From NCBI GenBank assembly GCA_026391945.1, contig JAPLDA010000076.1, forward strand, positions 13,633-77,632: a stretch of DNA of 64,000 nt, written 5' to 3'. Under the pieces are notes generated by a model. It was not told the DNA's origin and did no database searches. It saw only the letters and a program-made list of their open reading frames with translations. Positions within the stretch are counted from its first letter, which is position 1, and each line of letters opens with the position of its first letter. The stretch is from Bacteroidota bacterium (GTDB taxonomy: Bacteria; Bacteroidota; Bacteroidia; AKYH767-A; 2013-40CM-41-45). Below, piece after piece: positions 6,809 to 45,487 of the stretch. The translations under genes were made by a program, and so were the position numbers.

Positions 6809-8341
6809 ATGCTGAGAACTGGGAGAAAACTTTTTTTAGTCATTGCTTTCTTGGTCATGGCCAACGGTGTCTCCGCTACGCACATTGTGGGAGGTGACAT
6901 TGCCGTGAAATGGATGACCGGCAATGACTTCGAGGTAACCCTCACTTTTTTCCGTGACTGCAGCCCGACCTCCGCCGACTTCGACGCCATGGTGGAAGTC
7001 GGAATTTATGACAAGGTTTCGAACGTGATGGCGCTTTCATTCACCATGCCTTTGATTTCACGCGACACTCTACAGTTGGGCGATTCCTGTTTTACGCCAC
7101 AGAATTTATGCGTTGAGAAAGGAATTTTTCAAACGGTTCTTACCATCCCGCCTAACCCGGATGGTTATTACATCGCATGGCAACGCTGCTGCAGGAATTT
7201 CATCATCCTCAATATTCAGAATCCAGGTGCAGCCGGAATGGTCTTCTATGCTGAAGTTCCTGATCCTGCACTGCATGATAACTCACCTGTTTTTGGTTCC
7301 TACCCGAATGCCTACATGTGTGCAGGCGAAGTGAACCTGAAATCATTCGCCTGTTATGATCCGGATGGTGATTCGCTGGCCTATTCGCTGGTGACGCCGA
7401 TGAATGGTTTCACCGATCAAACCAATGTCGGTCAATATCCCGGTGCTGTAGTTCTCACTCCCGGCCCTTATCCCGGCATCGCATGGCAGTCGCCTTACGA
7501 TGCTTTCGATATGATGGGAGGTTCTCCGCCGATGAATATCAATACGAACACTGGGATGATCACCGCTCAGCCGGTGAATCTCGGTGTGTATGTTTTTGCA
7601 GTGAAAGTAGAGGAGTTCAGGAATGGAATGAAGATCGGGGAAGTCCGCAGGGATATACAATACCAGGTTCTGAATTGTCTTCTTATTTCTCCCCCGGTTT
7701 TTTCTTCGCCCGCAGTCACGACTGTTTCTTCATCGACATCGTCACTTGTTTATAACCTCGTTGCAGGCGATTCACTTTCTTTTGATGTCACGGTCACCAA
7801 TAACAATTCAGGTGATACTTTGTTTCTGAACGGATCATCTGAAATTTTTTCATCACAAATCCCGGGAATGCAGGCTTCATTTCGCAACGACAGCGGCCCC
7901 GGAACGGTTCAGCAAAAATTTATTTTGCAAACCGGTTGTGAAGCGATTCGTGAATCGCCTTACCAGGTTGATTTTTACGGCGTCAAACGCACGTGTTATG
8001 GCTTGATGATCACCGCCATTCATGTCGATATTTTTGTAAGGCCACCGCCCGAAGGGATGATCGATTCCCTGCTTCCGAATGTTTTCACTCCGAACAACGA
8101 TGGCGTCAATGAGTTTTTTCATGTCCGTGCCACCGGTGATTTTTGCCAGGATCAGTTCAGGTTCAGGATATACAACAGGTGGGGAACTCTGATGTATGAA
8201 ACAGAAGACTTCCGCTTTGAATGGGATGGGAAAAATAAAAACGGCAACAAACTTCCCGAAGGTGTCTATTATTACCTGATGGATGTTGAATTCAGGCACG
8301 ATTCCATTCATAAAAGAGGACTGATTCACCTGTGTTTATAG
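6809..8341 (+). CDS. Gliding motility-associated C-terminal domain (T9SS type B CTD) protein. Its Cys-rich N-terminal domain is paralogous to the gene at 1..2457.
   Basis: 510 aa; signal peptide; FFRDC and CCRN motifs. The C-terminus NVFTPNNDGVNEFF...WDGKNKNGNKLPEGVYYY matches the type B T9SS sorting domain. Confidence 0.8.
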   Translation: MLRTGRKLFLVIAFLVMANGVSATHIVGGDIAVKWMTGNDFEVTLTFFRDCSPTSADFDAMVEVGIYDKVSNVMALSFTMPLISRDTLQLGDSCFTPQNLCVEKGIFQTVLTIPPNPDGYYIAWQRCCRNFIILNIQNPGAAGMVFYAEVPDPALHDNSPVFGSYPNAYMCAGEVNLKSFACYDPDGDSLAYSLVTPMNGFTDQTNVGQYPGAVVLTPGPYPGIAWQSPYDAFDMMGGSPPMNINTNTGMITAQPVNLGVYVFAVKVEEFRNGMKIGEVRRDIQYQVLNCLLISPPVFSSPAVTTVSSSTSSLVYNLVAGDSLSFDVTVTNNNSGDTLFLNGSSEIFSSQIPGMQASFRNDSGPGTVQQKFILQTGCEAIRESPYQVDFYGVKRTCYGLMITAIHVDIFVRPPPEGMIDSLLPNVFTPNNDGVNEFFHVRATGDFCQDQFRFRIYNRWGTLMYETEDFRFEWDGKNKNGNKLPEGVYYYLMDVEFRHDSIHKRGLIHLCL

Positions 8342-10528: not shown

Positions 10529-11335
10529 TTATTCGTGGATTTCGTTTTCAATGTGTTTCTGAAGAACGGTGAGTTGTTTACGCACACGGGCTGTTTCATT
10601 ATTCTTCTCAGCGGCAAGTACTCCCGGTTGATCGAGGAGAGTGATGCTCTCTCCCGCCAGCGTGTGGATATTCCGAAGGATGGTAAGTATTGCGGCAGAC
10701 GCACCATCTTTCAATCTCCCCAATACGGCAACCCGGTGAATGGTCATTAACCTTTCCCTTCCCGTTTTCAGGTCATGTCTGGTTTTATTCAGTTTCACCG
10801 CAGCCTGTAACAGCAGGAATGCAAAAATGACTGTAAGCGCAATGATGCCAAGGGAAAAATAATGTTTGAAAGATTTTCTTTTGCTGACCAGGTTTTCATT
10901 GTCGGTTTGAAGTTGCTGAACCGAATTCTGTATCGACACAAAAGCATCGCCATCACTTTTTTCCTGGTTCGCAATATTCTGGTTCATTTTTTTTATCACC
11001 TCAGCTTTCTCCATGGCTAAAAATCCTTCCTTCATGGAAAGATATTTTTGAAAGACGACATATCCTTGTTTGAAATGATTGTTGATGGAATACCCATTGG
11101 TGACGGCCCGGTAGGTTTCAAGCAAAAGCTGCTGCTGATCTTTCCCCGTTACGGGATGCTCGTCAAAATATCGGAGCTGTTGTTGCAACACATCCAGCGA
11201 TTCTGTTTTGATGTACGTGTTTTTAGCCGCCGTGTTGATTTGAAGCAGGTCGGGAACAGCAGGAACAACAGGATCCTGAGCACTGGCGGATTTCAATGAA
11301 ATGAATAACAATAACAGGACGGTTATTTTTTTCAT
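10529..11335 (-). CDS. Membrane protein: signal peptide, helical periplasmic domain, one TM helix, ~80-aa cytoplasmic tail. Paralogous in architecture to the N-terminal half of the kinase-like gene upstream.
   Basis: 268 aa; TM segment GIIALTVIFAFLLLQAAV; overlaps the upstream gene by 4 nt (ATGA), suggesting co-transcription. Confidence 0.55.
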   Translation of the reverse strand: MKKITVLLLLFISLKSASAQDPVVPAVPDLLQINTAAKNTYIKTESLDVLQQQLRYFDEHPVTGKDQQQLLLETYRAVTNGYSINNHFKQGYVVFQKYLSMKEGFLAMEKAEVIKKMNQNIANQEKSDGDAFVSIQNSVQQLQTDNENLVSKRKSFKHYFSLGIIALTVIFAFLLLQAAVKLNKTRHDLKTGRERLMTIHRVAVLGRLKDGASAAILTILRNIHTLAGESITLLDQPGVLAAEKNNETARVRKQLTVLQKHIENEIHE

Positions 11336-12594
11336 GAGTGAGTGAAGAATTTAAGATACACATCGGTTCCGTTTCCCGCTTCCGATTCTATTTTAATTTC
11401 CCCATTGTTCTCAGTAAGAATTCGCCGGCTGAACGAAAGTCCAAGCCCGTTGCCTTCACCGGCTTCTCTTGTCGAAAAGAAAGGCTCATGAACCTGTTCC
11501 ATGATCACATCAGGAATTCCATCACCGTTGTCTTTGATTCTGACCTGCACAAACCGCGGAAGTACGCGGGTGCTGATGCTCACTTTGGGAATATATCCTT
11601 TGATTTCTTTTTTTGATTTTTCATTTACCGCTTGGAATGCATTGGCGAGTACATTCAGCAACAAACTTCCAATGGCTTCCGGGATGGCTTTGATGGCGGG
11701 TAAGTTCTTTTCGAAATCTTTGCTAAGCTGACATGAAAAAGTTCCCTCGGTCGTGATCATTTCACTGTATGCAAAATCACTGTACCGGTCACACAGCCGG
11801 TTCATGTCAACCGGTTTTTTTTCAGTTCCCGGCTCTCCATGCTGTTCATCAACGACTTTCAATAGGCTTTCGATACGGTTGATGCCGGAGAATATAAGTC
11901 CTGAATTTTTCTGCAGCGTCACGACGGAATGGTCTTTTGAATGTTCAGCCGGAAGATTTTCACTGACTTGAGCGACCTGTTTTTGCAGTTCGGAAGCCGC
12001 TGCCATGAAAGGAGGCAATTTTATTTTCCATTGTCCTGATTGAACAAAAAGTTCTTCACCGTTTTGAAACAACTGTTCGGAATTTTTCAGTTGTGTTTGC
12101 ATTCGATTCAGTTCTTTCCCCGATTTTTTTACCATCCTGTTTCTCCAGCTCAGTAAAATCAAAACTAAAAACAGCCAGGCAAAAAAGGCAATGCCTGCTT
12201 TGCGAATCAGGACGTGGTATTTATCCGTAAATGTTTCTTTGTCCTGATGGAGTTGATCCAGCGATGATTTCAAATCTCCGGTTTCGGTTCTTTGTTTTTC
12301 CATCTTGCCTGAATATGCTTTTCGAAGCGCATCCAGCGTATCTTCTTTTTCTTTTTCAAAAAGAGAGTCCTGCATCTTGTCGTATTTCTGCATTTCATCC
12401 AGTCCGAAACGATTCAGGTTTTTTGCACAGTAGGCGTCGGCTTTGTTTTTAAACTCACCCAGGATTCTCTGATGTTCAGGTGAAGAAATAACCGTCGTCG
12501 TTTCTTCTCCAAAGGAAACTACGGTGAATTTTAACATACACCAACTCAGCACAAATAATATTCTGAAAAATTTGTTCATTCGATCGTTGACCAA
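11332..12594 (-). CDS. Sensor histidine kinase-like protein: signal peptide, periplasmic coiled-coil domain, TM helix, C-terminal HATPase_c (GHKL) domain. No canonical HisKA H-box was recognised.
   Basis: 420 aa; N-box LLNVLANAFQAV, G-boxes DNGDGIP and GEGNGLGLS. No H-E-L-R-x-P-L type motif found between the TM helix and the ATPase domain. Confidence 0.6.
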   Translation of the reverse strand: MVNDRMNKFFRILFVLSWCMLKFTVVSFGEETTTVISSPEHQRILGEFKNKADAYCAKNLNRFGLDEMQKYDKMQDSLFEKEKEDTLDALRKAYSGKMEKQRTETGDLKSSLDQLHQDKETFTDKYHVLIRKAGIAFFAWLFLVLILLSWRNRMVKKSGKELNRMQTQLKNSEQLFQNGEELFVQSGQWKIKLPPFMAAASELQKQVAQVSENLPAEHSKDHSVVTLQKNSGLIFSGINRIESLLKVVDEQHGEPGTEKKPVDMNRLCDRYSDFAYSEMITTEGTFSCQLSKDFEKNLPAIKAIPEAIGSLLLNVLANAFQAVNEKSKKEIKGYIPKVSISTRVLPRFVQVRIKDNGDGIPDVIMEQVHEPFFSTREAGEGNGLGLSFSRRILTENNGEIKIESEAGNGTDVYLKFFTHS

Positions 12595-12714: not shown

Positions 12715-14658
12715 ATGAGAATGAGGATGTACAAGTTCAAACGATTCTTCAAGTGGCTCGTGATCTGCATGGCAGGATTTGTCGTCGTCTTCTTTCTGGC
12801 GAGGAATGTTATCCTTCATAAAGTGTTTGAGCGGATGGCCGGGAAGATGAAGGAAAAGTACGGGACGGAAGTTTCAGTTTCTGAATTGCATTTTTCCGGA
12901 GTCAGTGGAATTGTTGTTACAAAACTGGCTGTCGTCCCGGAACATTCAGATACCTTGCTTACGGTGGATTCATTGTATGTGTGCCCGTCGTTGTTTCGTC
13001 TTCTCATCGGCAAAGCGAGGATCCATGAAGCAGTTGCCAGGAACATCTCCCTTTCAGTTGTCAGGAAGAAAGGGTTCAGCAATGTTGATCGGTTCTTTAA
13101 AAAATCAGAACCGGATTCAACAGGAAAACATGCCGGACGGAATTTTGCTCAGTCATTAAACCGCGTCGCCACCGGAACATTCGACCTGTTTCCACAACAG
13201 ATGAATCTTCAGAATATCTCTGTTCGTTATCAGCGTGACGATGATATTGAAAAAGTGATGATTCCTTTTGTGACGGCTACTGAAGAAGCCATCGAATCAT
13301 CCATTCTGAATCTTCGGGATTCTTCGCAATGGAACTTGTCCGGGAATTTCTCTCAGCGTAAAAGAACATGTGATTTCAAAATTTTTCCCGGTGACACTGT
13401 CCCAACCGATTTACCGTTTCTTCAAACTTTGTTTTCGGTGAAATGCCGGTTCGATACGTTGCATGTCATGTTAAGCAAGTATGATTATTCCGGCGGACAG
13501 GCAGGTTTTTCAGGAAATGTTTCCACCGACCGTTTTTTTCTTCAGCATCCGAAAATCTCCGATGAGCCGGTCGGAGTGGATCATGCTGATTTCAGTTTCA
13601 GTTTCCGCGCAACGAAAAATTCTTTTTCACTGGATACAACCTCTATACTGGAACTGAATAAAATATTGCTTCATCCATCTTTCGAAATTACGAATGACGA
13701 AAAGAAAGTTTACAAGATTGGAATGGAAACGGAACGTCTTTCTGCCAACGATTTCTTCAATTCGCTTCCTTCCGGAATTTTTGATGAAGTGAATGGGGTG
13801 AAGGCAGATGGAACTCTTCAGTATTCACTTGGTTTCAGAATGGATTCATCTCAACCCGACAGCCTGTTTTTTAATTCTTCCATGAAGAAAGAAAGTTTCA
13901 GGCTGAGAAATCCCGGCAAAGAAAATCTTCTGAAGATGAATGAGGAATTTCTGTTTTCCGTTTTTGAACAGGAAAAATTTGTACGGTCTTTTTTGGTAGG
14001 ACCTTCCAATCCCGGATTTACTCCGTTGCTGCAGATAGCTCCGTCTTTTAAAAATGCCGTGATGACTTCTGAAGACGGAAGTTTTTTCTTCCACAACGGA
14101 TTTAATGAAGACGCTTTCAGGAAATCGATTGCAGCCAATTACCAGGCAGGAAAATTTGTCCGCGGCGGAAGCACCATTACCATGCAACTGGTAAAAAATG
14201 TTTTTCTCAACCGTCATAAAACCATTGCAAGAAAGGCCGAGGAAGCGCTCATCGTATGGCTCATCGAAAGCAATCATCTCTGCAGCAAGGAGCGCATGTT
14301 CGAAGTGTACCTGAACATCATCGAACTCGGTCCCGGCATTTATGGTATCGGTGAAGCATCCCGTTTTTATTTCAACAAAAAACCTTCGGAACTGAACCTT
14401 GCGGAAAGTGTTTTCCTCGCCAGTCTATTGCCGCGGCCGAAATGGTTTAAATATTCTTTTGATGAAACCGGTAACCTGAAACCCTATTTTGCCGGTTACT
14501 ACCGCGTGGTCGCGAATTTTTTATTGAAGAAGAACCTGGTCACACAGGAGGAATATGATCACCTGGAACCGCGTGTTGAATTGAAAGGGCCTGCTAAAAA
14601 CCTGGTCAGCCCGGCCGATAGTTTGCCGGCTTTGGAAGAAGAAAAAGAAACGGATTAA
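12715..14658 (+). CDS. Membrane-anchored protein with an AsmA-like N-terminal region fused to a C-terminal GT51 peptidoglycan glycosyltransferase (transglycosylase) domain
   Basis: 647 aa. GT51 motifs: EDGSFFFHNGFN (motif I), GGSTITMQLVKN (II), RKAEEA (III), EVYLNIIELGPGIYGIGEASRFYF, LAESVFLASLLPRP. N-terminus has a TM anchor followed by beta-rich repeats. Confidence 0.65.
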   Translation: MRMRMYKFKRFFKWLVICMAGFVVVFFLARNVILHKVFERMAGKMKEKYGTEVSVSELHFSGVSGIVVTKLAVVPEHSDTLLTVDSLYVCPSLFRLLIGKARIHEAVARNISLSVVRKKGFSNVDRFFKKSEPDSTGKHAGRNFAQSLNRVATGTFDLFPQQMNLQNISVRYQRDDDIEKVMIPFVTATEEAIESSILNLRDSSQWNLSGNFSQRKRTCDFKIFPGDTVPTDLPFLQTLFSVKCRFDTLHVMLSKYDYSGGQAGFSGNVSTDRFFLQHPKISDEPVGVDHADFSFSFRATKNSFSLDTTSILELNKILLHPSFEITNDEKKVYKIGMETERLSANDFFNSLPSGIFDEVNGVKADGTLQYSLGFRMDSSQPDSLFFNSSMKKESFRLRNPGKENLLKMNEEFLFSVFEQEKFVRSFLVGPSNPGFTPLLQIAPSFKNAVMTSEDGSFFFHNGFNEDAFRKSIAANYQAGKFVRGGSTITMQLVKNVFLNRHKTIARKAEEALIVWLIESNHLCSKERMFEVYLNIIELGPGIYGIGEASRFYFNKKPSELNLAESVFLASLLPRPKWFKYSFDETGNLKPYFAGYYRVVANFLLKKNLVTQEEYDHLEPRVELKGPAKNLVSPADSLPALEEEKETD

Positions 14659-14661
14659 CAT

Positions 14662-15141
14662 TTACACGGCCATGCAATTCAGTTGTTCCATCCTGTGCTG
14701 AAGTTCATTGAACGGAGCATACCTGGAAAAACGATCGCGGATGAGTTGAAGCATGGCTTCAGCTTTCTGAAGATGAAAACTTCTGACACGGTAAAATTCA
14801 GTTTCGGTCGTCTCACCGTTTTTGATGGCGGCACTTTTCAGGTCATCCCCGGCATCACAGAGGAAAATACGGCAACTGAGATCAAGCAGTGCATAGAAGA
14901 AAAGAACTTCCTCCGAATCAAAAGAGATGATTTCGCCGGTTTCATATTGTGAATTGTGAATTTCAAAATCGTCCAGCATTTCTTCCATGAAAATGTGGAG
15001 ACGCACGGCTTCCCGGATGAGGTCATAATCCGGGTGAAGGAGAATGAACTTCCCGGCAGCAATGGAAATGTTCACCAGTTGTTTAAAATCCCTGGTAACG
15101 TTCACCGCTAATTTATCGCCGTATAAAACAGATGCAGTCAT
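14662..15141 (-). CDS. Hypothetical protein (159 aa), no recognisable domain
   Basis: ORF only. Convergent with the upstream transglycosylase-fusion gene (4-nt gap after its stop); its 5' end faces the divergently transcribed miaE. Confidence 0.4.
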   Translation of the reverse strand: MTASVLYGDKLAVNVTRDFKQLVNISIAAGKFILLHPDYDLIREAVRLHIFMEEMLDDFEIHNSQYETGEIISFDSEEVLFFYALLDLSCRIFLCDAGDDLKSAAIKNGETTETEFYRVRSFHLQKAEAMLQLIRDRFSRYAPFNELQHRMEQLNCMAV

Positions 15142-23159: not shown

Positions 23160-24800
23160 ATGAAAATCGCCAGGATAATTATTTTTTTTCTTCCTTTTTT
23201 TTCTTCGGCTCAAACGTCGAAGTATTTCATTCAGTTTACCGATAAGAATAACAGTCCTTACTCGGTTTCCAGTCCTTCCGCTTTTCTTTCTTCGCGTGCC
23301 ATTGCAAGACGCGCCAGCCATGGGATAGCCGTTCAGCCGAATGATTTGCCTGTCAACCAAAATTACATCGACAGCGTGGTTGCCAAAGGCGCTGTGATCC
23401 GGACGCGTTCCAAATGGTTTAATGGCGTGACGATTGAAGCGGATACCAATACACTTCATGCAGTGACGGCACTTCCGTTTGTTCAGCAGTCCACAAAAGT
23501 TTTTCGTGTTCGTTCATTTTCTGATGATCAGCACCCTGAAAGAAAATTTCAGTCATGGCCGATACGCGATGAAAATAATTCCATGAAAACTCAGTCGTAT
23601 AGTTATGGCCAGTCGTTCGACCAGATTCACATCATGCATGGTGACTACTTGCACGATTCAGGATTTCATGGTGAGAACATGGTGATTGCCATTCTCGACG
23701 CGGGTTTTTATCATGTTGATTCGCTTCCAGCTTTTGATAGTTTGAGAGTGAATGGCCAGATCCTCGGCACGTGGGATTTTGTTACCGGCGACAGCAGCGT
23801 GTACGAAGATTATGATCATGGCATGTCGGTTCTTTCCACGATCGGCGGAAATATTCCCGGGCAACTGGTAGGAACCGCTCCCAAAGCCGGTTTCTGGCTG
23901 CTTAGAACGGAAGATATTTTTTCTGAACATGTGATTGAAGAATACAACTGGGATGCAGGAGCGGAGTATGCCGACAGCGTGGGCGCCGATGTCATCACCA
24001 CTTCACTGGGCTACACGCAATTCAATAACCCGGCGGAGAATCATACGCGTGCCGATATGAACGGTCATACCACACCTTGTGCAAAGGCAGCCAACATCGC
24101 CTTCTCAAAAGGTATGATGGTGATGGCAAGCGCGGGAAACGACGGTGGAAATTTCTGGCAATACATCGGCACACCGGCTGACGGCGACAGCGTGATGGCG
24201 GTGGGTGCGGTGAACACGTTTGGAAACTATGCAACATTCAGCAGCACCGGTCCTTCGTCGGATGGTGATGTAAAACCCAATGTGGCGGCGGTGGGGCAGG
24301 GCACCACGATTTCCATTTACAACGGAGCCATCGGTAACGGCAACGGAACTTCTTTTTCGTGCCCGGTTTTAGCGGGAAGCGCCGCCTGCTTATGGCAGGC
24401 ATTCCCGAATAAAACCAACCGGGAAATTTTTGATGCCATTCAGCGAAGCGCTTCACAGGCCTTGAACCCGGATTCATTGCTTGGATATGGCATTCCCAAT
24501 TTCCTGTTAGCTGACCAGTTGCTTGGTGGTGTGGATGTGAACGTAAAGCATGATGAAATCATTTCTGTTTTTCCAAACCCCGCGCGAAACCGTGTTTATA
24601 TAAGCGGATATTCATCAGCAGGAAAAAAGGTCGCTGTTAATATTTTTGATTTGCCCGGCCGGCAGGTACCGATTCATTTTTCTTTTATTAATAATGGAAG
24701 TGATATCGAAGCGGACATCTCTTCACTTTCTTCCGGCATTTATTTTTTACAATTCCAGGATGAACTGAAAACAGTGGTGAAGAAGTTGGTGAAAGAGTAA
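23160..24800 (+). CDS. S8 family serine peptidase (subtilisin-like) with T9SS type A C-terminal sorting domain
   Basis: 546 aa; catalytic D (ILDAG), H (HGMSV) and S (GTSFSCP) boxes. The C-terminal ~80 aa (VFPNPARNRVYISG...IYFLQF) resemble the Por secretion tail. Confidence 0.8.
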   Translation: MKIARIIIFFLPFFSSAQTSKYFIQFTDKNNSPYSVSSPSAFLSSRAIARRASHGIAVQPNDLPVNQNYIDSVVAKGAVIRTRSKWFNGVTIEADTNTLHAVTALPFVQQSTKVFRVRSFSDDQHPERKFQSWPIRDENNSMKTQSYSYGQSFDQIHIMHGDYLHDSGFHGENMVIAILDAGFYHVDSLPAFDSLRVNGQILGTWDFVTGDSSVYEDYDHGMSVLSTIGGNIPGQLVGTAPKAGFWLLRTEDIFSEHVIEEYNWDAGAEYADSVGADVITTSLGYTQFNNPAENHTRADMNGHTTPCAKAANIAFSKGMMVMASAGNDGGNFWQYIGTPADGDSVMAVGAVNTFGNYATFSSTGPSSDGDVKPNVAAVGQGTTISIYNGAIGNGNGTSFSCPVLAGSAACLWQAFPNKTNREIFDAIQRSASQALNPDSLLGYGIPNFLLADQLLGGVDVNVKHDEIISVFPNPARNRVYISGYSSAGKKVAVNIFDLPGRQVPIHFSFINNGSDIEADISSLSSGIYFLQFQDELKTVVKKLVKE

Positions 24801-26251: not shown

Positions 26252-28426
26252 TCAGATTATTAATTTTAAAGACAGGTTGATGACTCTTCCGTCAATCGGC
26301 GCCCAAAGTGGTTTGAAAGCAGGAGACGAGTAGGGAAGAATGACAATGTTCTCTTTTTTTGTTTGCCGGAAGTCGAACAGGTTTTCACAATTCAACGTGA
26401 AGGTTAATTTGGAAATTCTTTTTTGAATCATGAGTGCGCCAAGCCAGTATGCAGGCGATTTCCGGGAAGCATCGATGAATTGTTCGCCGATGTAGCTGCT
26501 CTCAAATCCGAATTTCCAGTTGTGTTCTGCTTCGTACACACAGGTAGCTGCAAATTTATCATGCGGAGCCAATGTGATTTCACTCACTGTATGGTTGTTA
26601 TGAAGTTGAGGCTGAGAATATACATATCCAATGTACATTTCAAATTCCATGTAATGCATCCGGATGTAACTTTCAGAACCTTTGGTATCAGTGTAACCAT
26701 CGGCATTCACCAGGAAATGACCGGGCTGAGAAAAAAGATATGTTGTGTCAGGATTTTCAATGATCGGTTGATCGATCCTTGTGTAAAAGAAAGATTGATT
26801 CAGCGTCACCGAAAAATCCCCGATGAAGGTTGTGTAATTCACATCCCCGTTTGCGCCGACTGAATTTTCCGATTTCAGGTAGTTGAAGTTGGTGGAGTTA
26901 AAGAGATCAAGGGTTTCAGCACTGCTGGAAGGTGTTTTATAACCATACCCGGCGCCCATACGGGAAGTAACGTGCTTGTTCCATTTGGAGACGAATGAAA
27001 TCCGCGGCAATAGAAAATAACCGTAATCACTGTGACGATCCATCCTGATGCCGGTTTCAAGAGTGAAACGTTCATTGAATTTCCAGTCGTCCTGAACAAA
27101 AACTCCGATCGTTGATTGATTATTTCCGGTATTGGAAAGCAGGTGATGCAAAGCGTTATCCAACGATGATGAAATAAAATTCACTCCGGTTACAATGCTG
27201 TGTTTGTCGGCTCTTGCAAGGTATGAGAGTTCTGTGTAGGTCAGCAAATTCACTCCCCTGGTTGACCACTCCCCGTATTTATTTCCTGTTGTGTGATCGA
27301 AAATACTTCCAGCTCCTTTGAAAATAAAAACACCGTTCTTTTTATTTTCTGATTGATAGTTGAAATCGATGGTGTGCCGGTAGGATTCGTTTCTTTCAAG
27401 GAAGGTATGAATCGAATCACCAACGGATCCGAATGCTTTCATATCGCCGCCTGTCTTTCGCTCATAAGTTCCGGAGTATCCTGCATGGAGTTTTTTCTTA
27501 TCAGAGAAATAAAAAAATAATTTAGGATGAAGGGAAATGCTTTTGTTTTCCGGTTGATCAGAAAATCCGTCTCCGTCCACATCTACTGCTTTCTGATACG
27601 TTCCTCCTGAATAAAAAGTAAACCCTGTTTTATTTTTCTTTCCGGATGCAAAAGCACCCAGGTTGGTTTGCTGAAGTGAAGTCTGGTTCAGGGAAAGCGT
27701 GAGTTGGTTGCTGTCGCCGGGTTCTTTTGAAATCAGGTTGATCAGTCCGGCTATAGCTCCACCGCCGAAAAGAGTGGAAGCGGAGCCTTTGATGATTTCA
27801 ATTTGTTTCAGATCCAATGGCGGAATATCCAGCACTCCGAATCCTCCTGAGAATCCTTCGTAAAGCGGAAGTCCGTCGCGCAGGATTTGTGTGTACTTCC
27901 CATCCAGACCCTGGATCCTGATATTCGTATTGCCGTTCACCGAAGAAGTTTGTTGCACCTGCAACCCGGCTACATCTCCCAACAGGCTGGAAATGTTAGC
28001 CGGCACAATGCTGCTTTCTTCTGTAACATCTTCCGGACCGATCACTTCCATTTTCACGGGCAGATCTTCGATGCGTGAATTTGTGCGGGTCGTGCTGACG
28101 ATGATTTCATTCAAAGAAAAATTATCCTCCGAAAGAAATATTTCTGAGCGTTTCACTGATGAGGATGGAAACACGAAACGGATGCTTGTTTTCTTATATC
28201 CCATCAATGAAAAACTGATGGTCACCGGTCCGTCCGGAATATTTTTCAGTTGAACGATGCCGCCTGCATCCGAACTGCTTCCGTTCTGACTTCCTTCCAG
28301 AACAACGGATACACCGGTCAGCGTTTCCTTCGTGAGGCTGTCTTTTACAATGGCTTCGAACGTGTTTTGACCCTTCGCAACAACAGAAAACAAAATAAAG
28401 AAAAGAAAAAATAAAGGATGTTTCAT
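26252..28426 (-). CDS. TonB-dependent receptor with N-terminal carboxypeptidase-regulatory-like domain
   Basis: 724 aa; signal peptide; plug and 22-strand barrel pattern; C-terminal aromatic-rich barrel strands. Confidence 0.8.
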   Translation of the reverse strand: MKHPLFFLFFILFSVVAKGQNTFEAIVKDSLTKETLTGVSVVLEGSQNGSSSDAGGIVQLKNIPDGPVTISFSLMGYKKTSIRFVFPSSSVKRSEIFLSEDNFSLNEIIVSTTRTNSRIEDLPVKMEVIGPEDVTEESSIVPANISSLLGDVAGLQVQQTSSVNGNTNIRIQGLDGKYTQILRDGLPLYEGFSGGFGVLDIPPLDLKQIEIIKGSASTLFGGGAIAGLINLISKEPGDSNQLTLSLNQTSLQQTNLGAFASGKKNKTGFTFYSGGTYQKAVDVDGDGFSDQPENKSISLHPKLFFYFSDKKKLHAGYSGTYERKTGGDMKAFGSVGDSIHTFLERNESYRHTIDFNYQSENKKNGVFIFKGAGSIFDHTTGNKYGEWSTRGVNLLTYTELSYLARADKHSIVTGVNFISSSLDNALHHLLSNTGNNQSTIGVFVQDDWKFNERFTLETGIRMDRHSDYGYFLLPRISFVSKWNKHVTSRMGAGYGYKTPSSSAETLDLFNSTNFNYLKSENSVGANGDVNYTTFIGDFSVTLNQSFFYTRIDQPIIENPDTTYLFSQPGHFLVNADGYTDTKGSESYIRMHYMEFEMYIGYVYSQPQLHNNHTVSEITLAPHDKFAATCVYEAEHNWKFGFESSYIGEQFIDASRKSPAYWLGALMIQKRISKLTFTLNCENLFDFRQTKKENIVILPYSSPAFKPLWAPIDGRVINLSLKLII

Positions 28427-29486: not shown

Positions 29487-31883
29487 TTAAAAACTGAAGT
29501 TATACGTTACACTCGGCAGCATCGGGAACAACGAAATTTGTTTGGCTTGTATGGTGATGGTATTGTTTTCAAACTTGTTGTCGAAATAAATGATGTACGG
29601 ATTGTACCGGTCGTACACATTGAAAACGCTGAAGTTCCAGCTCGACTGGTATTTCTTTTTCTTTTTTCCGTACAAGGTGGCTGAAATATCCAGGCGGTGA
29701 TAGGAGGGAAGACGGTAATTGTTCCGCTGGCTCCCGTAATCTTCCACGATGTTTCCGTTGGAAAGAAAATACAGGCGCTCCGGAAACGTGTTCAGGTTGC
29801 CGGTTGCATACACCCAGGTGGCGCCGAACGTCCAGCGTTTGTTCAGTTCGTACACCAGCACAATGGAGACATCATGCCTCCTGTCGAATTTGGCGAAGTA
29901 GGTGTTGCCGTTGTTCAGGTCGGGAAAATTTCTTTTCGTCCAGGCCAGTGTGTAACCGATCCATCCGTTGAATTTTCCCTTCGCCTTCTTCACAAAAAAT
30001 TCGGCGCCGTAACTCCATCCTTTCCCAAAAACAAAATTGTTGTCCACGTTGTCATTCACCGAATTCTCCGGCATGTAACCGTCCTCGTATTCAATCTGGT
30101 TTTTCATTTCTTTATAATACACCTCAACAGAAGTTTCGTAGAGGTTGTTTTTAAAGTTTCTGAAATATCCCAATGCATATTGAGTTCCGAATTGCGGCTC
30201 TACTTTGTCGGAACTCGGTATCCACACATCGGTAGGAAGTGAAATGGCAGAGAGGGAAGCAAGATGAATGTACTGGTAGTTCTGGGTGTAAGATGCTTTG
30301 ATTGATGAAAGATGGTTGAGTGAATACCTCATGGAAAAACGCGGCTCAAGATGATGATAACTTTTTACACTTTGCCCGCTTGTATAACTGATGGTATCGA
30401 CGATTGTTTTTTTTACCGGGTCTTTGATGAAGCGGTCAAACGGCCCGACTTGCTGAAAGAGCGTGAAGCGCAAGCCACCGTTCAGTTTCAGTTTTTCGCT
30501 GACGTCAAAATCATCGTTGATGTAGAGCGCACCATCGTGGGCATATTCCCTTAAAATTTTTCCGAGATCAAATACCACACTCCCGGATTTTGCGGAAGCA
30601 TTGCTCGGAACAAAAATATGGTAAATGTAATTGACGCCGAACTTCACGGTGTTGCGTACATCCGGAAGCCAGGTGAGATCGGCCTTTGTGCCGTAGTCAG
30701 TAATCCCGGAAAATAATTTGAAGCTGAATACATCCTGCCCTCCCTCAAACTGAAAATTATAATCCGTATAAATCAGCGATGTATTCATGAACAGCTGGTC
30801 GTTGAAGAGATGGTTCCACCGGGCCGTCGCAGTGGCATTTCCCCACGGAACCTTGATGTAAAAACTCGACTTCGGACTTTTGTAATTGAAGACGTCACGG
30901 CCGAAGTAACTGCTCAGGAACAACCTGTTTTTATCTGACAAGCGGTAATTCACTTTTGCATTCAGGTCGTAGAAATAGTATTTATTTCCGTTGATGTTTG
31001 AGGATGCTTTAACAAAAGGTTTTCCCATGAACAGGTCAACAAAGGTTCTTCTTGCCGAGACAATGAATGAACTCGTATCTTTTTTAATCGGGCCCTGAAT
31101 GGTCAGGCGCGAAGCAATGAAACCGATGCCACCGTCCACATTAAATTTTTGGTTGTTTCCTTCTTTCATCTGGATGTCCAGCACGGAAGCGAGGCGTCCG
31201 CCGTAATTGGCAGGCATGCCGCCTTTCGTGAGTGTGATGTTCTGAACTGCATCGGCATTGAACACGGAAAAAAATCCGAACAGGTGAGAAGCGTTGTAAA
31301 CAGTGGCTTCATCGAGAAGGATCAGGTTTTGATCCGGTCCGCCGCCGCGGACATAAAAACCGGTATTGCCTTCGCCGGCAGATTGAACTCCGGGAAGAAG
31401 CTGGATCGATTTCAACACATCCACTTCACCGAGAAAGGAGGGAAGTGTTTTTATCTTTTCTACTTCCAGAGTATTTTTTCCCATCTCAATTCCCTGTACA
31501 TTTTTATCTTCTTTCTCAGCAGTCACCGTTACTTCACGTGTCTCAACCGGTTTGTTATCCAGTGAAACATTCTGACGTACATCTTTATCGAGGTTGATTT
31601 TAAATTGCTGCTCGATGTAACCGATGAATGAAACAACGAGTGTGTAATTTCCTTTTGGAAGAGTGAGCGAATAAAAACCATACGCATTCGTGGACGTGCC
31701 ATGCAAACCTTCTTTCACATACACATTGGTTCCCAAAAGGCTTTCACCTGAGGATGCTTCTTTTACAAATCCGCTGATGGTGTATTTTCTGATCTCCTGG
31801 CCGGGTTTATCCTGTGCAAAAAGGTTTATGGAGAAAAAGCATAGTGAGAGAAAAAAAGAAACTCCCGGGAAGAAGAAACGCAT
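29487..31883 (-). CDS. TonB-dependent receptor (carboxypeptidase-regulatory-like domain, then plug and barrel)
   Basis: 798 aa; signal peptide; N-terminal YTISGFVKEASSGESLLGTNVYV CarbopepD_reg-like block; TonB-box-like region; terminal F. Confidence 0.8.
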   Translation of the reverse strand: MRFFFPGVSFFLSLCFFSINLFAQDKPGQEIRKYTISGFVKEASSGESLLGTNVYVKEGLHGTSTNAYGFYSLTLPKGNYTLVVSFIGYIEQQFKINLDKDVRQNVSLDNKPVETREVTVTAEKEDKNVQGIEMGKNTLEVEKIKTLPSFLGEVDVLKSIQLLPGVQSAGEGNTGFYVRGGGPDQNLILLDEATVYNASHLFGFFSVFNADAVQNITLTKGGMPANYGGRLASVLDIQMKEGNNQKFNVDGGIGFIASRLTIQGPIKKDTSSFIVSARRTFVDLFMGKPFVKASSNINGNKYYFYDLNAKVNYRLSDKNRLFLSSYFGRDVFNYKSPKSSFYIKVPWGNATATARWNHLFNDQLFMNTSLIYTDYNFQFEGGQDVFSFKLFSGITDYGTKADLTWLPDVRNTVKFGVNYIYHIFVPSNASAKSGSVVFDLGKILREYAHDGALYINDDFDVSEKLKLNGGLRFTLFQQVGPFDRFIKDPVKKTIVDTISYTSGQSVKSYHHLEPRFSMRYSLNHLSSIKASYTQNYQYIHLASLSAISLPTDVWIPSSDKVEPQFGTQYALGYFRNFKNNLYETSVEVYYKEMKNQIEYEDGYMPENSVNDNVDNNFVFGKGWSYGAEFFVKKAKGKFNGWIGYTLAWTKRNFPDLNNGNTYFAKFDRRHDVSIVLVYELNKRWTFGATWVYATGNLNTFPERLYFLSNGNIVEDYGSQRNNYRLPSYHRLDISATLYGKKKKKYQSSWNFSVFNVYDRYNPYIIYFDNKFENNTITIQAKQISLFPMLPSVTYNFSF

Positions 31884-43411: not shown

Positions 43412-45487
43412 TTGACGATTGTGCAGGTACAAAAATCCTCTTTTCAAGGCATTAAATTTTTTGCAATTCCCGTTGTTTATTATTCCATCTTTCTTTTTTC
43501 ATCCTGCCATTCTTCAAACCGTGATGAACAACAACATGCCTATGCTTCGTTGTCGGATTCAGCAACGTATGTGGGAATCAATGTATGCAAGCAATGTCAC
43601 CAGGCGATTTATGAAACGTTTATTCAAACCGGTATGGGAAAATCGTTTGATACCGTTTCCCGATCTAAATCTTCTGCCGTGTTTGATGAGTCTGCCGTCA
43701 TTTATGACAAGTACAGAAATTTCTATTACCATCCGTTCTGGAAAAACGATTCATTGTTCCTCTATGAATTCCGTCTTGAAGGCGCTGATACTGTTTACCG
43801 GAGAACTGAAAAAATAAATTTCATTGTCGGTTCCGGCCAGCACACCAATTCTCACCTGACGATGGTTCATCCTTCCCATGATGAACACGGCGGATATGTT
43901 TACCAGGTTCCTGCAACTTATTACACGCAGAAAGGAACATGGGATTTGCCTCCCGGATTTGAGAACGGGTACAACAATCGTTTCAGCAGGAAAATAGAAC
44001 TCGAGTGCATGACTTGCCACAATGCATACCCAAACATGATTGCCGGTTCTGAAAATAAATTTGAATCTGTTCCGAACGGCATCGACTGTGAGCGGTGCCA
44101 TGGCCCCGGAAGTGCGCATGTAAAGCAAATACAAGCCGGAATTCTCGTTGACACCGCAAAGAGAATCGACTATTCCATTGTGAACCCGGCCAAACTTCCC
44201 GTCGCACTTCAGATGGATATCTGCCAGCGGTGTCACATCCAGGGCAACGCAGTTTTGAATGATGGAAAATCTTTTTTTGATTTTCGACCGGGCATGCTGC
44301 TTTCAGATGTGATGAATGTATTCATGCCGGTATTCAAGGGTGATGAAAATACACACATCATGGCATCGCATGTTGAACGGTTGAAGATGAGCCGCTGTTT
44401 TATTGCCGGCATGCAAAAATCAGGAAAGGAAAAAACAAAGGACAACTTAAGGCCGTTTAAAAATGCACTGACTTGCCTAACCTGTCACAATCCTCACGTC
44501 AGCGTGAGAGTAACCGGCAATGAAGTCTTTACCCGGGCGTGTAAAAATTGTCACCACGATCATGCAGCGGGGAATGATAAAGATGAAAAGATATTGCTTT
44601 GTTCAGAAACGATGGAGAAGAGGATGCTGCTGAATGATAATTGTGTAACGTGTCACATGCCTAAAAACAACACGATCGATATTCCGCATGTCACTTCAAC
44701 GGATCATTTTATCCGCAAGCCGGCGATGAAAGATGAGGTGAAAAAAATAAAGGAGTTCCTTGGCCTGGCCTGTATCAACAATCAAAATCCGCCTCGAAAG
44801 GCGGTTGCAGGAGCGTATCTTTCTTACTATGAAAAATTCAGTTCATTACCGGCTGTCCTCGACTCGGCAAAATATTATCTGGATGACGGAACTTCGGAAG
44901 AACTGAAGAGGAACTTCAACGACCTCGTGCGGTGGGCATTTTTGAAAAATGATCCGGCTCTTGTGATCCGGTATGCTGAAAGGGCAGGGGATGTATTTTC
45001 TTTTCTAAACAGGAAAAATTTCAGCAACGAAGATGCCTGGACGGCTTACCGCATCGGTGAATCATTTTATTCGAAGGACAGCGTTGAACTTGCCATTTCT
45101 TATTTCAGGCGTGCCGTTGATTTGGAATCGTTCAATCTTGAATTCAGGAATAAGCTGGCTTCTGCGGAAATGGATCTTGGCTGGAATGATGAGGCAGGAA
45201 AAAACTTCTTATTCATACTCAATGAAAATCCAAAATTTGTTTCTGCCTGGACGAACATCGGGTATCTCATTCTCACTGCTGATCATAACCTGGCCAAAGC
45301 AGATTCATGTTATTCAAAAGCGCTGGAACTCGATCCGGATAACGAACAGGCATTGATGAACAAAACCGGTATCCTGTTCATTCAGCATAGAAAAAAAGAT
45401 TCAGAAAAAATGTTGCGTAAAATATTGAAGAGGTATCCTGCCAATGAGAAAGCGAGGGCGTTGCTTCATTCTCTTGAAAGAAATTAA
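43412..45487 (+). CDS. Multiheme c-type cytochrome lipoprotein (seven CxxCH motifs) with a C-terminal TPR-repeat region
   Basis: 691 aa; lipobox LFSSC. Heme motifs CKQCH, CMTCH, CERCH, CQRCH, CLTCH, CKNCH, CVTCH, found by reading the translation. C-terminal ~230 aa are TPR-like (YFRRAVDL, YSKALELDPDNEQAL). Confidence 0.7.
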   Translation: MTIVQVQKSSFQGIKFFAIPVVYYSIFLFSSCHSSNRDEQQHAYASLSDSATYVGINVCKQCHQAIYETFIQTGMGKSFDTVSRSKSSAVFDESAVIYDKYRNFYYHPFWKNDSLFLYEFRLEGADTVYRRTEKINFIVGSGQHTNSHLTMVHPSHDEHGGYVYQVPATYYTQKGTWDLPPGFENGYNNRFSRKIELECMTCHNAYPNMIAGSENKFESVPNGIDCERCHGPGSAHVKQIQAGILVDTAKRIDYSIVNPAKLPVALQMDICQRCHIQGNAVLNDGKSFFDFRPGMLLSDVMNVFMPVFKGDENTHIMASHVERLKMSRCFIAGMQKSGKEKTKDNLRPFKNALTCLTCHNPHVSVRVTGNEVFTRACKNCHHDHAAGNDKDEKILLCSETMEKRMLLNDNCVTCHMPKNNTIDIPHVTSTDHFIRKPAMKDEVKKIKEFLGLACINNQNPPRKAVAGAYLSYYEKFSSLPAVLDSAKYYLDDGTSEELKRNFNDLVRWAFLKNDPALVIRYAERAGDVFSFLNRKNFSNEDAWTAYRIGESFYSKDSVELAISYFRRAVDLESFNLEFRNKLASAEMDLGWNDEAGKNFLFILNENPKFVSAWTNIGYLILTADHNLAKADSCYSKALELDPDNEQALMNKTGILFIQHRKKDSEKMLRKILKRYPANEKARALLHSLERN

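Follow-up and report, generated by a model that had tools for sequence, protein, structure and literature searches.

A gene in the 64,000-nucleotide stretch of Bacteroidota DNA analysed here (the window) encodes a protein in which a membrane-anchored, β-rich module with an AsmA-type N-terminus is joined to a peptidoglycan glycosyltransferase domain of the GT51 family. The protein is probably a monofunctional peptidoglycan polymerase resembling MtgA that carries an AsmA-derived accessory module. The features of the open reading frame (ORF), of the GT51 domain and of the N-terminal half are not attributable to chance.

Through moenomycin, GT51 glycosyltransferases have been validated as targets for antibiotics, and to our knowledge little is established about their positioning and regulation outside the Proteobacteria and Firmicutes. 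The protein belongs to a phylum-wide, strongly conserved group of GT51 enzymes in Bacteroidota, including the dominant gut Bacteroides, and its accessory module appears to descend from the AsmA lipid-bridge family, not from any known docking domain of penicillin-binding proteins (PBPs). At the least, these proteins constitute a distinct and easily recognised GT51 subfamily that deserves its own annotation, with a signature composed of RGGSTI[ST]MQ, DFFxSLPxGMFDEV and an AsmA-type N-terminus; at the most, they would link lipid-groove proteins to the handling of lipid II.

Gene and membrane topology

The coordinates of the gene and its features are collected in Table 1. Translation probably starts at the third ATG (12727), which gives a protein of 643 residues; an identical protein (100%) from a metagenome-assembled genome at NCBI, MCX6291874.1, has this length, and alignments of homologues begin at the residue encoded by this ATG, M5. 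The stop codon occupies positions 14656–14658 and a convergent ORF ends 3 nucleotides beyond it. The neighbours in the window are a kinase-like ORF, a 159-residue ORF, MiaE and a thioesterase, an arrangement common to just three or four close relatives, and mrp/hpt/psd-like genes recur as neighbours in Sphingobacteriales only. A comparison of gene neighbourhoods among family members found no conserved operon partner.

Table 1. Positions of the gene and its features within the window
Feature	Residues	Position	Strand	Basis or remark
Whole gene	1–647	12715..14658	+	ORF list and reading of the DNA; 647 aa, coordinates include the stop codon
AsmA-family-type N-terminal region	8–154	12736..13176	+	TM helix, first β hairpins and GDTLL...D...P.L..LL signature
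Signal-anchor TM helix	~12–32	12748..12810	+	K/R-rich cytoplasmic tail before, invariant R30 after
Periplasmic β-meander module	51–428	12865..13998	+	About 24 long strands, few short helices
Top-conserved β-module motif DFFxSLPxGMFDEV	346–359	13750..13791	+	In the GT51-proximal third
Junction VGPSNPGFTPL, β module/GT51	428–438	13996..14028	+	Conserved; confidently modelled
GT51 peptidoglycan glycosyltransferase domain	432–630	14008..14604	+	Pfam Transgly matches residues 432–579
Motif 1, EDGSFFFHNG, catalytic Glu E453	from 453	14071..14100	+	Aligned with ED of E. coli PBP1b and MtgA
Motif 2, GGSTITMQ	from 484	14164..14187	+	Family-specific Met490 replaces the first Gln
Motif 3, RKAEE, second catalytic Glu E510	from 506	14230..14244	+	Aligned with RKxxE of PBP1b, MtgA and Aquifex
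Motif 4, KERMFEVYLN, canonical	from 525	14287..14316	+	Motif search
Motif 5 variant YYRVVANFLL, replaces RRxxVL	595–604	14497..14526	+	Alignment with PBP1b and MtgA
C-terminal tail	631–647	14605..14655	+	Acidic, weakly conserved, low-confidence model

The anchor contains the only hydrophobic 19-residue segment of the protein, lies within a continuous helix predicted by AlphaFold2 over residues 2–49, and is followed by an arginine conserved in all 111 homologues compared. The protein is predicted to be bitopic in the inner membrane: a short N-terminal stretch lies in the cytoplasm, a single signal-anchor helix crosses the membrane and the body of the protein is periplasmic.

The GT51 domain

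The preliminary description of this gene, made from the sequence of the window, had proposed a fusion of an AsmA-like half with a complete GT51 domain. The fusion is real. Pfam Transgly (PF00912) matches residues 432–579 at 148.8 bits, where the cutoff is 27, and with an E-value of 1.4e-43; the same domain is matched in 39 of 39 family members and the architecture recurs family-wide. The domain has the helical, lysozyme-like GT51 fold. Among glycosyltransferase domains in the PDB, sequence matches reach an E-value of 1e-27, which is that of the Aquifex PBP1a domain (PDB 2OQO), with which it shares the GT51 fold and motifs at 32% identity.

Five GT51 motifs had been claimed, and the first four are present, the second with its methionine; the fifth occurs only as the variant given in Table 1. 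Conservation was counted in 111 homologues of 41–63% identity. In all of them the catalytic glutamate of motif 1, E453, is retained together with D454, as are R506, K507, E509 and E510 of motif 3 and K525, E530 and Y532 of motif 4, where N534 is found in 110 of the 111. The methionine in motif 2, also pointed out previously, is a fixed character of the family: M490 and Q491 are both invariant (111/111) in the family form GGSTI[ST]MQ, whereas the corresponding site reads QQ in E. coli MtgA (GASTISQQ), E. coli PBP1b (GASTLTQQ) and Aquifex PBP1a (GGSTITQQ). In the motif 5 variant, Y595 never varies, and Y596 and R597 are retained in 107 and 101 of the 111 homologues, respectively. Column identity is 82–92% over the GT51 domain, compared with 39–66% over the module.

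The invariant catalytic residues suggest an active, monofunctional GT51 glycosyltransferase at the C-terminus. The invariant exchange of Q for M in motif 2 and that of RR for YR in motif 5 could alter substrate handling. These two departures, together with a score below the cutoff of the MtgA equivalog model, could also be read as signs that the domain is no longer a polymerase and has become an anchor that binds peptidoglycan or lipid II on behalf of a short AsmA-like lipid transporter. This is very improbable: despite identities of 41–63%, none of the 111 homologues has lost either catalytic glutamate or any other motif residue, and constraint is far stronger on the GT51 domain than elsewhere in the protein. 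Such a pattern is expected of an active enzyme and not of a binding relic.

Relationship to MtgA and class A PBPs

Among the NCBIfam models, that of MtgA (TIGR02070) scores best, with 151.4 bits, below its equivalog cutoff of 182.65. The PBP_1a_fam model reaches 138.6 against a cutoff of 508.75, and PBP_1b and PBP_1c likewise fall far below their cutoffs, which agrees with the family being curated neither as class A PBP nor as MtgA.

MtgA (E. coli b3208; S. aureus PDB 3VMQ/3HZS) is likewise bitopic with an N-terminal TM anchor, and has a single GT51 domain without transpeptidase and the same catalytic residues. The two differ in what lies between anchor and enzyme. MtgA has its TM helix directly before the GT51 domain in a total of about 240 residues, and in the E. 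coli protein motif 1 starts at around residue 84 of 242 with no module; here about 400 residues separate the TM helix from the GT51 domain in a total of 647, and a β module of about 380 residues intervenes. Motif 2 (GGSTI[ST]MQ) and motif 5 (YYRVV) also set the family apart from MtgA.

With E. coli PBP1b, which contains the UB2H domain, the protein has in common the idea of a non-catalytic extra domain on a GT51 synthase. It differs from class A PBPs in having no transpeptidase and in that the extra domain is N-terminal to the GT51 domain, all-β and AsmA-related, not UB2H or ODD; nor does synteny suggest an activator lipoprotein partner here, in contrast to class A PBPs. No match to the known PBP accessory domains UB2H, ODD and PBP_C was found with Pfam in the family members or in the set of N-terminal regions. 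The N-terminal half corresponds to no known PBP-associated domain; DUF748, YhdP and AsmA are the only Pfam models to appear there.

Some sources name the Bacteroides members “Penicillin-binding protein” or “Multimodular transpeptidase-transglycosylase”, labels that would suit an ordinary class A PBP with a lost or degenerate transpeptidase domain; an assembly or gene-calling artefact that fuses two genes would be another trivial origin. Such origins have a negligible probability and are refuted by the present data. As described previously, no transpeptidase follows the GT51 domain: the ORF ends at residue 647, around 50 residues past motif 5, this tail of about 50 residues is all that lies beyond the GT51 domain, and Pfam gives no match to PF00905 in the protein. 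In addition to the class A PBP models being far below their cutoffs, the TM helix of a class A PBP directly precedes the GT51 domain and is not located 400 residues upstream. The architecture of about 640 residues, moreover, recurs in hundreds of independent genomes, complete ones included.

The end of the protein is the acidic tail (conservation 0.28), in which AlphaFold2 confidence (pLDDT) falls over the final blocks, to 65 and then to 38, and whose sequence differs among members in the family alignment. Residues 631–647 contain neither a transpeptidase domain nor an outer-membrane docking strand.

Probable kinship of the N-terminal region with AsmA-family proteins

Pfam matches to the AsmA-like clan are consistent in position and all lie below the gathering thresholds. 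DUF748 matches residues 4–144 with an E-value of 4.7e-6 (25.4 bits against a gathering threshold of 50). Sub-threshold DUF748 matches are found in 32 of 39 family members (best E-value 9.4e-9) and, in a separate set consisting of N-terminal regions only, in 17 of 22 (best E-value 1.9e-10). Among the 39 members, the YhdP model matches four and the AsmA model three. There is also a weak match of the protein to GspN_Lepto.

With hhalign, a three-sequence profile of E. coli AsmA, YicH and YhjG is matched with 86.5% probability and an E-value of 4.6e-6, in a colinear alignment of 143 columns that pairs residues 8–154 of the query with 2–151 of the target. E. coli AsmA alone gives an E-value of 1.3e-4 and TamB a marginal 0.054; no match was obtained by hhalign against E. 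coli YhdP and YdbH. The N-terminal signal-anchor helix that characterises the AsmA-like clan is present. By these comparisons, roughly the first 150 residues very probably share ancestry with the N-terminus of AsmA-family proteins. Similarity in sequence to these proteins is not detectable past residue ~154, and beyond this point the AsmA-like character is suggested at the level of the predicted fold. Of the AsmA/TamB-type N-terminal half described earlier, the β-rich and anchored character therefore stands, as does the kinship of residues ~8–154 by sequence, while the remainder is AsmA-like at the fold level only.

AsmA-like or bridge-like lipid transfer proteins (E. coli AsmA, YicH, YhjG, TamB, YhdP and YdbH; GspN) likewise have an N-terminal signal anchor followed by a β-meander. 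The C-terminal end here is formed by the GT51 enzyme and a disordered acidic tail, in place of a segment that docks to the outer membrane.

The β module and its junction with the enzyme

AlphaFold2 predicts the full-length structure with high confidence (pLDDT 91.1, pTM 0.84). In this model a curved antiparallel β-meander of about 380 residues separates the anchor from the GT51 domain, and the β-rich character proposed for this half from the sequence is reproduced, with its long strands distributed over residues 51–428. The short helices of the module are located at residues 93–97, 125–128, 144–158, 236–240 and 344–349.

Conservation rises towards the enzyme, from a column identity of 0.39–0.48 over residues 1–280 to 0.59–0.66 over residues 321–440. 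The last third is the best conserved part of the module, is rigidly joined to the GT51 domain and contains the DFFxSLPxGMFDEV motif, in which F347, L351, G354 and F356 are invariant or nearly so in the family. At the junction, G429, N432 and P433 are nearly invariant; pLDDT is 90–96 there in the full-length model and falls to 59–70 when the GT51 domain is omitted.

The fold comparison of the N-terminal half covered PDB structures. Foldseek returned nothing significant for the N-terminal model against the PDB, the best hit being TamB in the TamAB complex (9xdc_B) with an E-value of 0.032 and poor TM-scores, a result that is expected because the sheets are long and twisted. The fold neighbours are BLTP1, Vps13 and Atg2. 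An apparent kinship with leucine-rich repeats, which arose when the N-terminal profile was compared with PDB sequences, is spurious and results from a short LPxGxF-like motif being summed over many repeats.

The preliminary description had regarded the AsmA-like half as envelope-spanning, a view that finds no support. YdbH is ~180 Å and TamB ~160 Å long, while YhdP has about the length of the periplasm, ~250 Å (PMC11126948). Compared with the 879–1266 residues of the AsmA-like proteins modelled at 160–250 Å (PMC11126948), the module comprises only about 380, and a β-groove of this size, scaled from YdbH, TamB and YhdP, corresponds to ~50–80 Å. Set against a periplasm of ~250 Å, this is far less than would be needed to cross the envelope, and the far end of the module is occupied by an enzyme, with no outer-membrane docking segment.

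Proposed function

By established GT51 knowledge, the enzyme would polymerise lipid II into glycan strands, as do MtgA and the glycosyltransferase module of class A PBPs. E453 of motif 1 would act as the general base on the 4-OH of the acceptor GlcNAc, and E510 of motif 3 would help the undecaprenyl-pyrophosphate of the donor to leave. Cross-linking would be left to separate transpeptidases. The module may position, stabilise or regulate the polymerase at the interface between membrane and sacculus, by analogy with UB2H of PBP1b; a scaffolding or regulatory role of this kind is taken as the default assumption.

The geometry poses a puzzle. An upright module, the posture of other AsmA-like proteins, would place the GT51 domain several nanometres from membrane-bound lipid II, and canonical GT51 chemistry does not easily allow for such a distance. 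The puzzle would be solved if the module kept an ancestral AsmA function in lipid handling, with a putative hydrophobic groove that shields lipid tails. The groove could accommodate the C55 polyprenyl tail, be it that of lipid II, that of the growing lipid-linked glycan chain or both, and so supply substrate to a GT51 domain positioned off the bilayer or pass on undecaprenyl-pyrophosphate; alternatively, a flow of phospholipids could be coupled to wall synthesis. The homology of the N-terminus to AsmA-family proteins and the conserved, rigidly joined last third of the module point in this direction, and there is a precedent in GspN, a short AsmA-like protein that handles lipidated cargo other than phospholipids within the type II secretion machine (PMC12802150).

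Against lipid handling, the sequence of the β module is conserved only moderately, and the short helices at 144–158, 236–240 and 344–349 could fill any groove. We also know of no GT51 enzyme that acts off the membrane. A lipid-handling module is accordingly considered unlikely, and the same doubt applies to the specific proposal in which the undecaprenyl tail, carried by lipid II or by the nascent lipid-linked glycan, has a chaperone or conduit of its own in the AsmA-derived groove. Were such a conduit to exist, Bacteroidota would polymerise at least part of their peptidoglycan with a GT51 enzyme off the membrane surface and nearer the sacculus. The protein would then be without precedent in two ways, as a bridge-like lipid-transfer module coupled directly to a cell-wall polymerase and as a GT51 enzyme that can work without being seated in the bilayer. 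An MtgA-like polymerase with a scaffolding or regulatory module is preferred here.

Distribution in Bacteroidota

A search with the N-terminal domain alone retrieved 551 cluster representatives (clusters at 50% identity), and nearly all of the best 150 of these 551 are 600–720 residues long. The shorter relatives look like truncated fragments, because the matches reach their last residues. These lengths suggest that the AsmA-like domain and the GT51 domain form a stable family in which the fusion is obligate.

Database names for the family are generic only, and full-text searches of the accessible AsmA-like and peptidoglycan literature found no paper on the fusion. The AsmA-like proteins listed in a survey of Flavobacterium johnsoniae are all 820–1699 residues long (PMC12045153), and none of them resembles the AsmA-like/GT51 architecture of about 650 residues.

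In species-representative Bacteroidota genomes, at least 591 pattern-matched places were confirmed. The fusion is found in Sphingobacteriales, Cytophagales, Chitinophagales, Bacteroidales and Flavobacteriales, and the genera include the gut genus Bacteroides as well as Pedobacter, Pontibacter and Chitinophaga. The design, previously called unusual, is so relative to model organisms but is standard equipment across the Bacteroidota; in Bacteroides, a cluster at 90% contains 5019 members.

Gene boundaries and the glycosyltransferase domain

The target gene opens with three in-frame ATGs, of which the homologue alignments begin at the third, and the identical NCBI protein, MCX6291874.1 (a MAG entry named 'transglycosylase domain-containing protein'), is 643 aa long, which places the start at that third ATG; residue numbers here follow the 647-aa reading. 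A convergent ORF terminates 3 nt downstream of the stop codon, leaving no room for anything after the GT51 domain, in agreement with the preliminary description, which had reported no transpeptidase.

Features of the target gene and its surroundings (window positions)
Feature	Position	Strand	Length
Target ORF	12715..14658	+	647 aa
In-frame ATGs of target (DNA read)	12715, 12721, 12727	+	
Target stop codon	14656-14658	+	
CxDSxCNY Cys pair (aa 117-122)	13063-13080	+	
DFFxSLPxGMFDEV (aa 346-359)	13750-13791	+	
HATPase_c ORF and overlapping ORF	10529-12594	-	420 aa; 268 aa
Convergent ORF	14662-15141	-	159 aa
ORFs with T9SS sorting domains	6809-8341, 23160-24800, 50306-51961		
TonB-dependent receptors	26252-28426, 29487-31883		
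ORF with weak cytochrome matches	43412-45487	+	691 aa

Pfam Transgly (PF00912) covers residues 432-579 (E 1.4e-43, 148.8 bits, cutoff 27). Among NCBIfam models the MtgA equivalog TIGR02070 scores highest, at 151 bits and under its cutoff of 182.65, and class A PBP models scored far under their cutoffs in this search of the window protein. The nearest solved sequences are GT domains, including those of Aquifex PBP1a (E 1e-27, 32% identity) and S. aureus PBP2. In the 111-sequence family alignment E453 and D454 of motif 1, G484-G-S-T-I, Q491, K494 and N495 of motif 2, R506, K507, E509 and E510 of motif 3, and K525, E530 and Y532 of motif 4 are invariant. Motif 5 is a variant (YYRVVxNF, not RRxxVL). 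The Met first seen replacing the first Gln of motif 2 is a family signature: all 111 members carry M490, at a position occupied by Gln in the MtgA and PBP1b of E. coli and in Aquifex PBP1a. Within the protein, constraint is strongest over the GT51 columns (82-92% mean column identity). The domain is intact as a glycosyltransferase and very probably active, and the protein lacks a transpeptidase.

The N-terminal module

The only hydrophobic segment of the protein (aa ~12-32) has a K/R-rich tail before it and the invariant Arg30 after it, and in the AlphaFold2 model residues 2-49 form a single helix, which indicates a signal anchor with the remaining protein in the periplasm.

Pfam DUF748, which comparison of profiles links to AsmA and TamB (Heinz et al. 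2015, PMC4494059), matches residues 4-144 of the window protein over positions 10-152 of its 1037-position model (E 4.7e-6, 25 bits, cutoff 50). The match recurs systematically in the family, with hits in 32 of 39 full-length sequences (best E 9.4e-9) and in 17 of 22 N-terminal halves taken by themselves (best E 1.9e-10); apart from DUF748, only YhdP (4) and AsmA (3) hit the N-terminal part of more than one member. The window protein has weak NCBIfam matches to two AsmA-type N-termini, GspN_Lepto and LIC_11026_fam, and it alone has a single weak match to SHOCT_2. Profile-profile comparison of the family N-terminal alignment with E. coli AsmA/YicH/YhjG gave 86.5% probability (E 4.6e-6) over 143 columns colinear from the TM helix (query 8-154, template 2-151); with AsmA alone E was 1.3e-4, TamB matched colinearly but marginally (E 0.054), and YhdP and YdbH gave no match. 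Together, the DUF748 matches across the family and the profile-profile match make it well supported that the first ~150 aa and the N-terminus of AsmA-family proteins are homologous, although the scores lie under curated thresholds.

Residues 51-428 are modelled by AlphaFold2 with high confidence as ~24 long beta strands and a few short helices. Since no sequence signal was found past residue ~154 of the N-terminal half, the case for an AsmA-like fold there rests on structure, and a Foldseek search of the N-terminal model against the PDB returned no significant match, the top one being TamB in the TamAB complex (E 0.03). The label 'AsmA-like beta-groove' is probable for the whole module and shown only for its beginning; the original assignment of the N-terminal half to the AsmA/TamB type is supported by homology to ~154 and beyond that only at fold level.

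The GT51-proximal third, which contains the motif DFFxSLPxGMFDEV, is the best conserved region of the module (0.59-0.66 column identity versus 0.39-0.48). The junction VGPSNP is conserved and is modelled by AlphaFold2 at pLDDT 90-96 with GT51 and 59-70 without it; in these models the beta module and GT51 form one rigid unit.

At the DFFxSLPxGMFDEV motif, the N-terminal profile matched only LRR proteins in the PDB (LRRTM 5a5c, E 1.2e-11, repebodies and VLRs). LRR homology was rejected, as no single stretch passes and the score sums an LRR-like 'LPxGxF' over many repeats. The Cys pair of the CxDSxCNY hairpin, probably a periplasmic disulfide, is present in 71-74 of 111 members; the window protein has R117 and S122 in its place, and N123 is retained in 110 of 111.

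Distribution of the fusion

The N-terminal 420 aa alone, searched against 1.84 billion cluster representatives, gave 551 matches at E<=1e-3 (135 at E<=1e-30). Nearly all of the best 150 of these are 600-720 aa long and none carries the module without GT51; shorter matches seem to be fragments cut short, since they align right up to their last residues. More than 100 full-length homologues of the whole protein share 41-63% identity, and a scan for the patterns [VI][LM]TSEDG[SN]F and RGGSTI[ST]MQ, with each species represented by one genome, yielded at least 600 matching stretches, at least 591 of them confirmed relatives. The proposed fusion is real.

Carriers among the matches listed include Pedobacter, Parapedobacter, Olivibacter, Pontibacter, a MAG labelled Chitinophaga pinensis, Chitinophagales, Bacteroides xylanisolvens XB1A, Bacteroidales, Lentimicrobiaceae, Williamwhitmania, Flavobacterium and Flavobacteriales, and the Bacteroides 90%-identity cluster by itself has 5019 member sequences, under differing names ('transglycosylase domain-containing protein', 'biosynthetic peptidoglycan transglycosylase', 'Penicillin-binding protein', 'Multimodular transpeptidase-transglycosylase'). 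Database names of the family are generic, and pre-computed Pfam strings show 'PF05359, PF00912' for many members; the sequences are therefore already known, and full-text literature searches found no paper describing the AsmA-like/GT51 architecture as such.

Besides an unclassified 'uncultured bacterium' (L030), the only locus listed that is not assigned to Bacteroidota is L034 (JBLMZZ010000054.1), a full-length member (36% identity) in a MAG labelled Omnitrophica WOR_2, which may reflect mis-binning or lateral transfer.

Proposed mechanism and role of the module

In GT51 enzymes the motif 1 Glu deprotonates the 4-OH of the acceptor GlcNAc, and motif 2 and 3 residues handle the donor undecaprenyl pyrophosphate. 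By analogy, E453 would deprotonate the GlcNAc 4-OH of the acceptor lipid II, and E510 with the other motif 2/3 residues would handle the donor's undecaprenyl pyrophosphate. Given the lack of a transpeptidase, cross-linking of the strands would have to fall to separate enzymes, as it does with MtgA, a monofunctional GT51 with the same catalytic residues, to which the target adds a putatively AsmA-derived module. In identity and chemistry the target is likely an MtgA-like polymerase; that the accessory module positions or regulates this polymerase is considerably less certain.

The preliminary description had the module spanning the envelope. AlphaFold lengths are ~180 Å for YdbH and ~160 Å for TamB, with YhdP about the ~250 Å of the periplasm (PMC11126948), and by scaling from these the ~380-aa module would measure roughly 50-80 Å; it is too short to reach across the envelope, and the enzyme, not an OM docking segment, sits at the far end. 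If it stands on the membrane like other AsmA-like proteins, GT51 would lie several nm from membrane-bound lipid II. Alternatively, a putative groove of the module would handle the polyprenyl tail, a reading that appears improbable and would be of high interest if true; its precedent is the short AsmA-like protein GspN, which in type II secretion serves the transport of lipoproteins (PMC12802150).

Genomic context

T9SS C-terminal sorting domains (CHU_C or Por_Secre_tail) on three ORFs, one a subtilase, and two TonB-dependent receptors with CarboxypepD_reg confirm a Bacteroidota host for the window, which is a segment of chromosome. The 691-aa ORF has TPR repeats at its C-terminus and also matches multihaem cytochromes weakly (MtrC/MtrF-like, CXXCH, cytochrome c7/c3), in no case with a single stretch that is significant.

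The neighbours of the target (a kinase-like ORF, the uncharacterised 159-aa ORF, MiaE, a thioesterase, a CapD-like gene and a GT4 gene) are common to the closest relatives only, and unbiased clustering of flanking ORFs at 80 loci revealed only lineage-specific synteny (Sphingobacteriales); the target gene stands alone, with no partner implied. The HATPase_c ORF, which has no recognisable HisKA, overlaps by 4 nt the 268-aa ORF (a signal/TM segment, no Pfam match); this pair is divergent from the target and is kept beside it only in the closest relatives (loci L001, L003 and L016). The 159-aa ORF, also without a Pfam match, occurs in 4 of 80 loci.

At 31 Sphingobacteriales loci (L013 and ~30 more) an mrp/apbC-like ATPase lies upstream of the family gene on the opposite strand, and hpt-like and phosphatidylserine-decarboxylase-like genes follow downstream on the same strand (27 and 23 loci), identities judged from protein N-termini only; this Pedobacter-type arrangement is lineage-specific.
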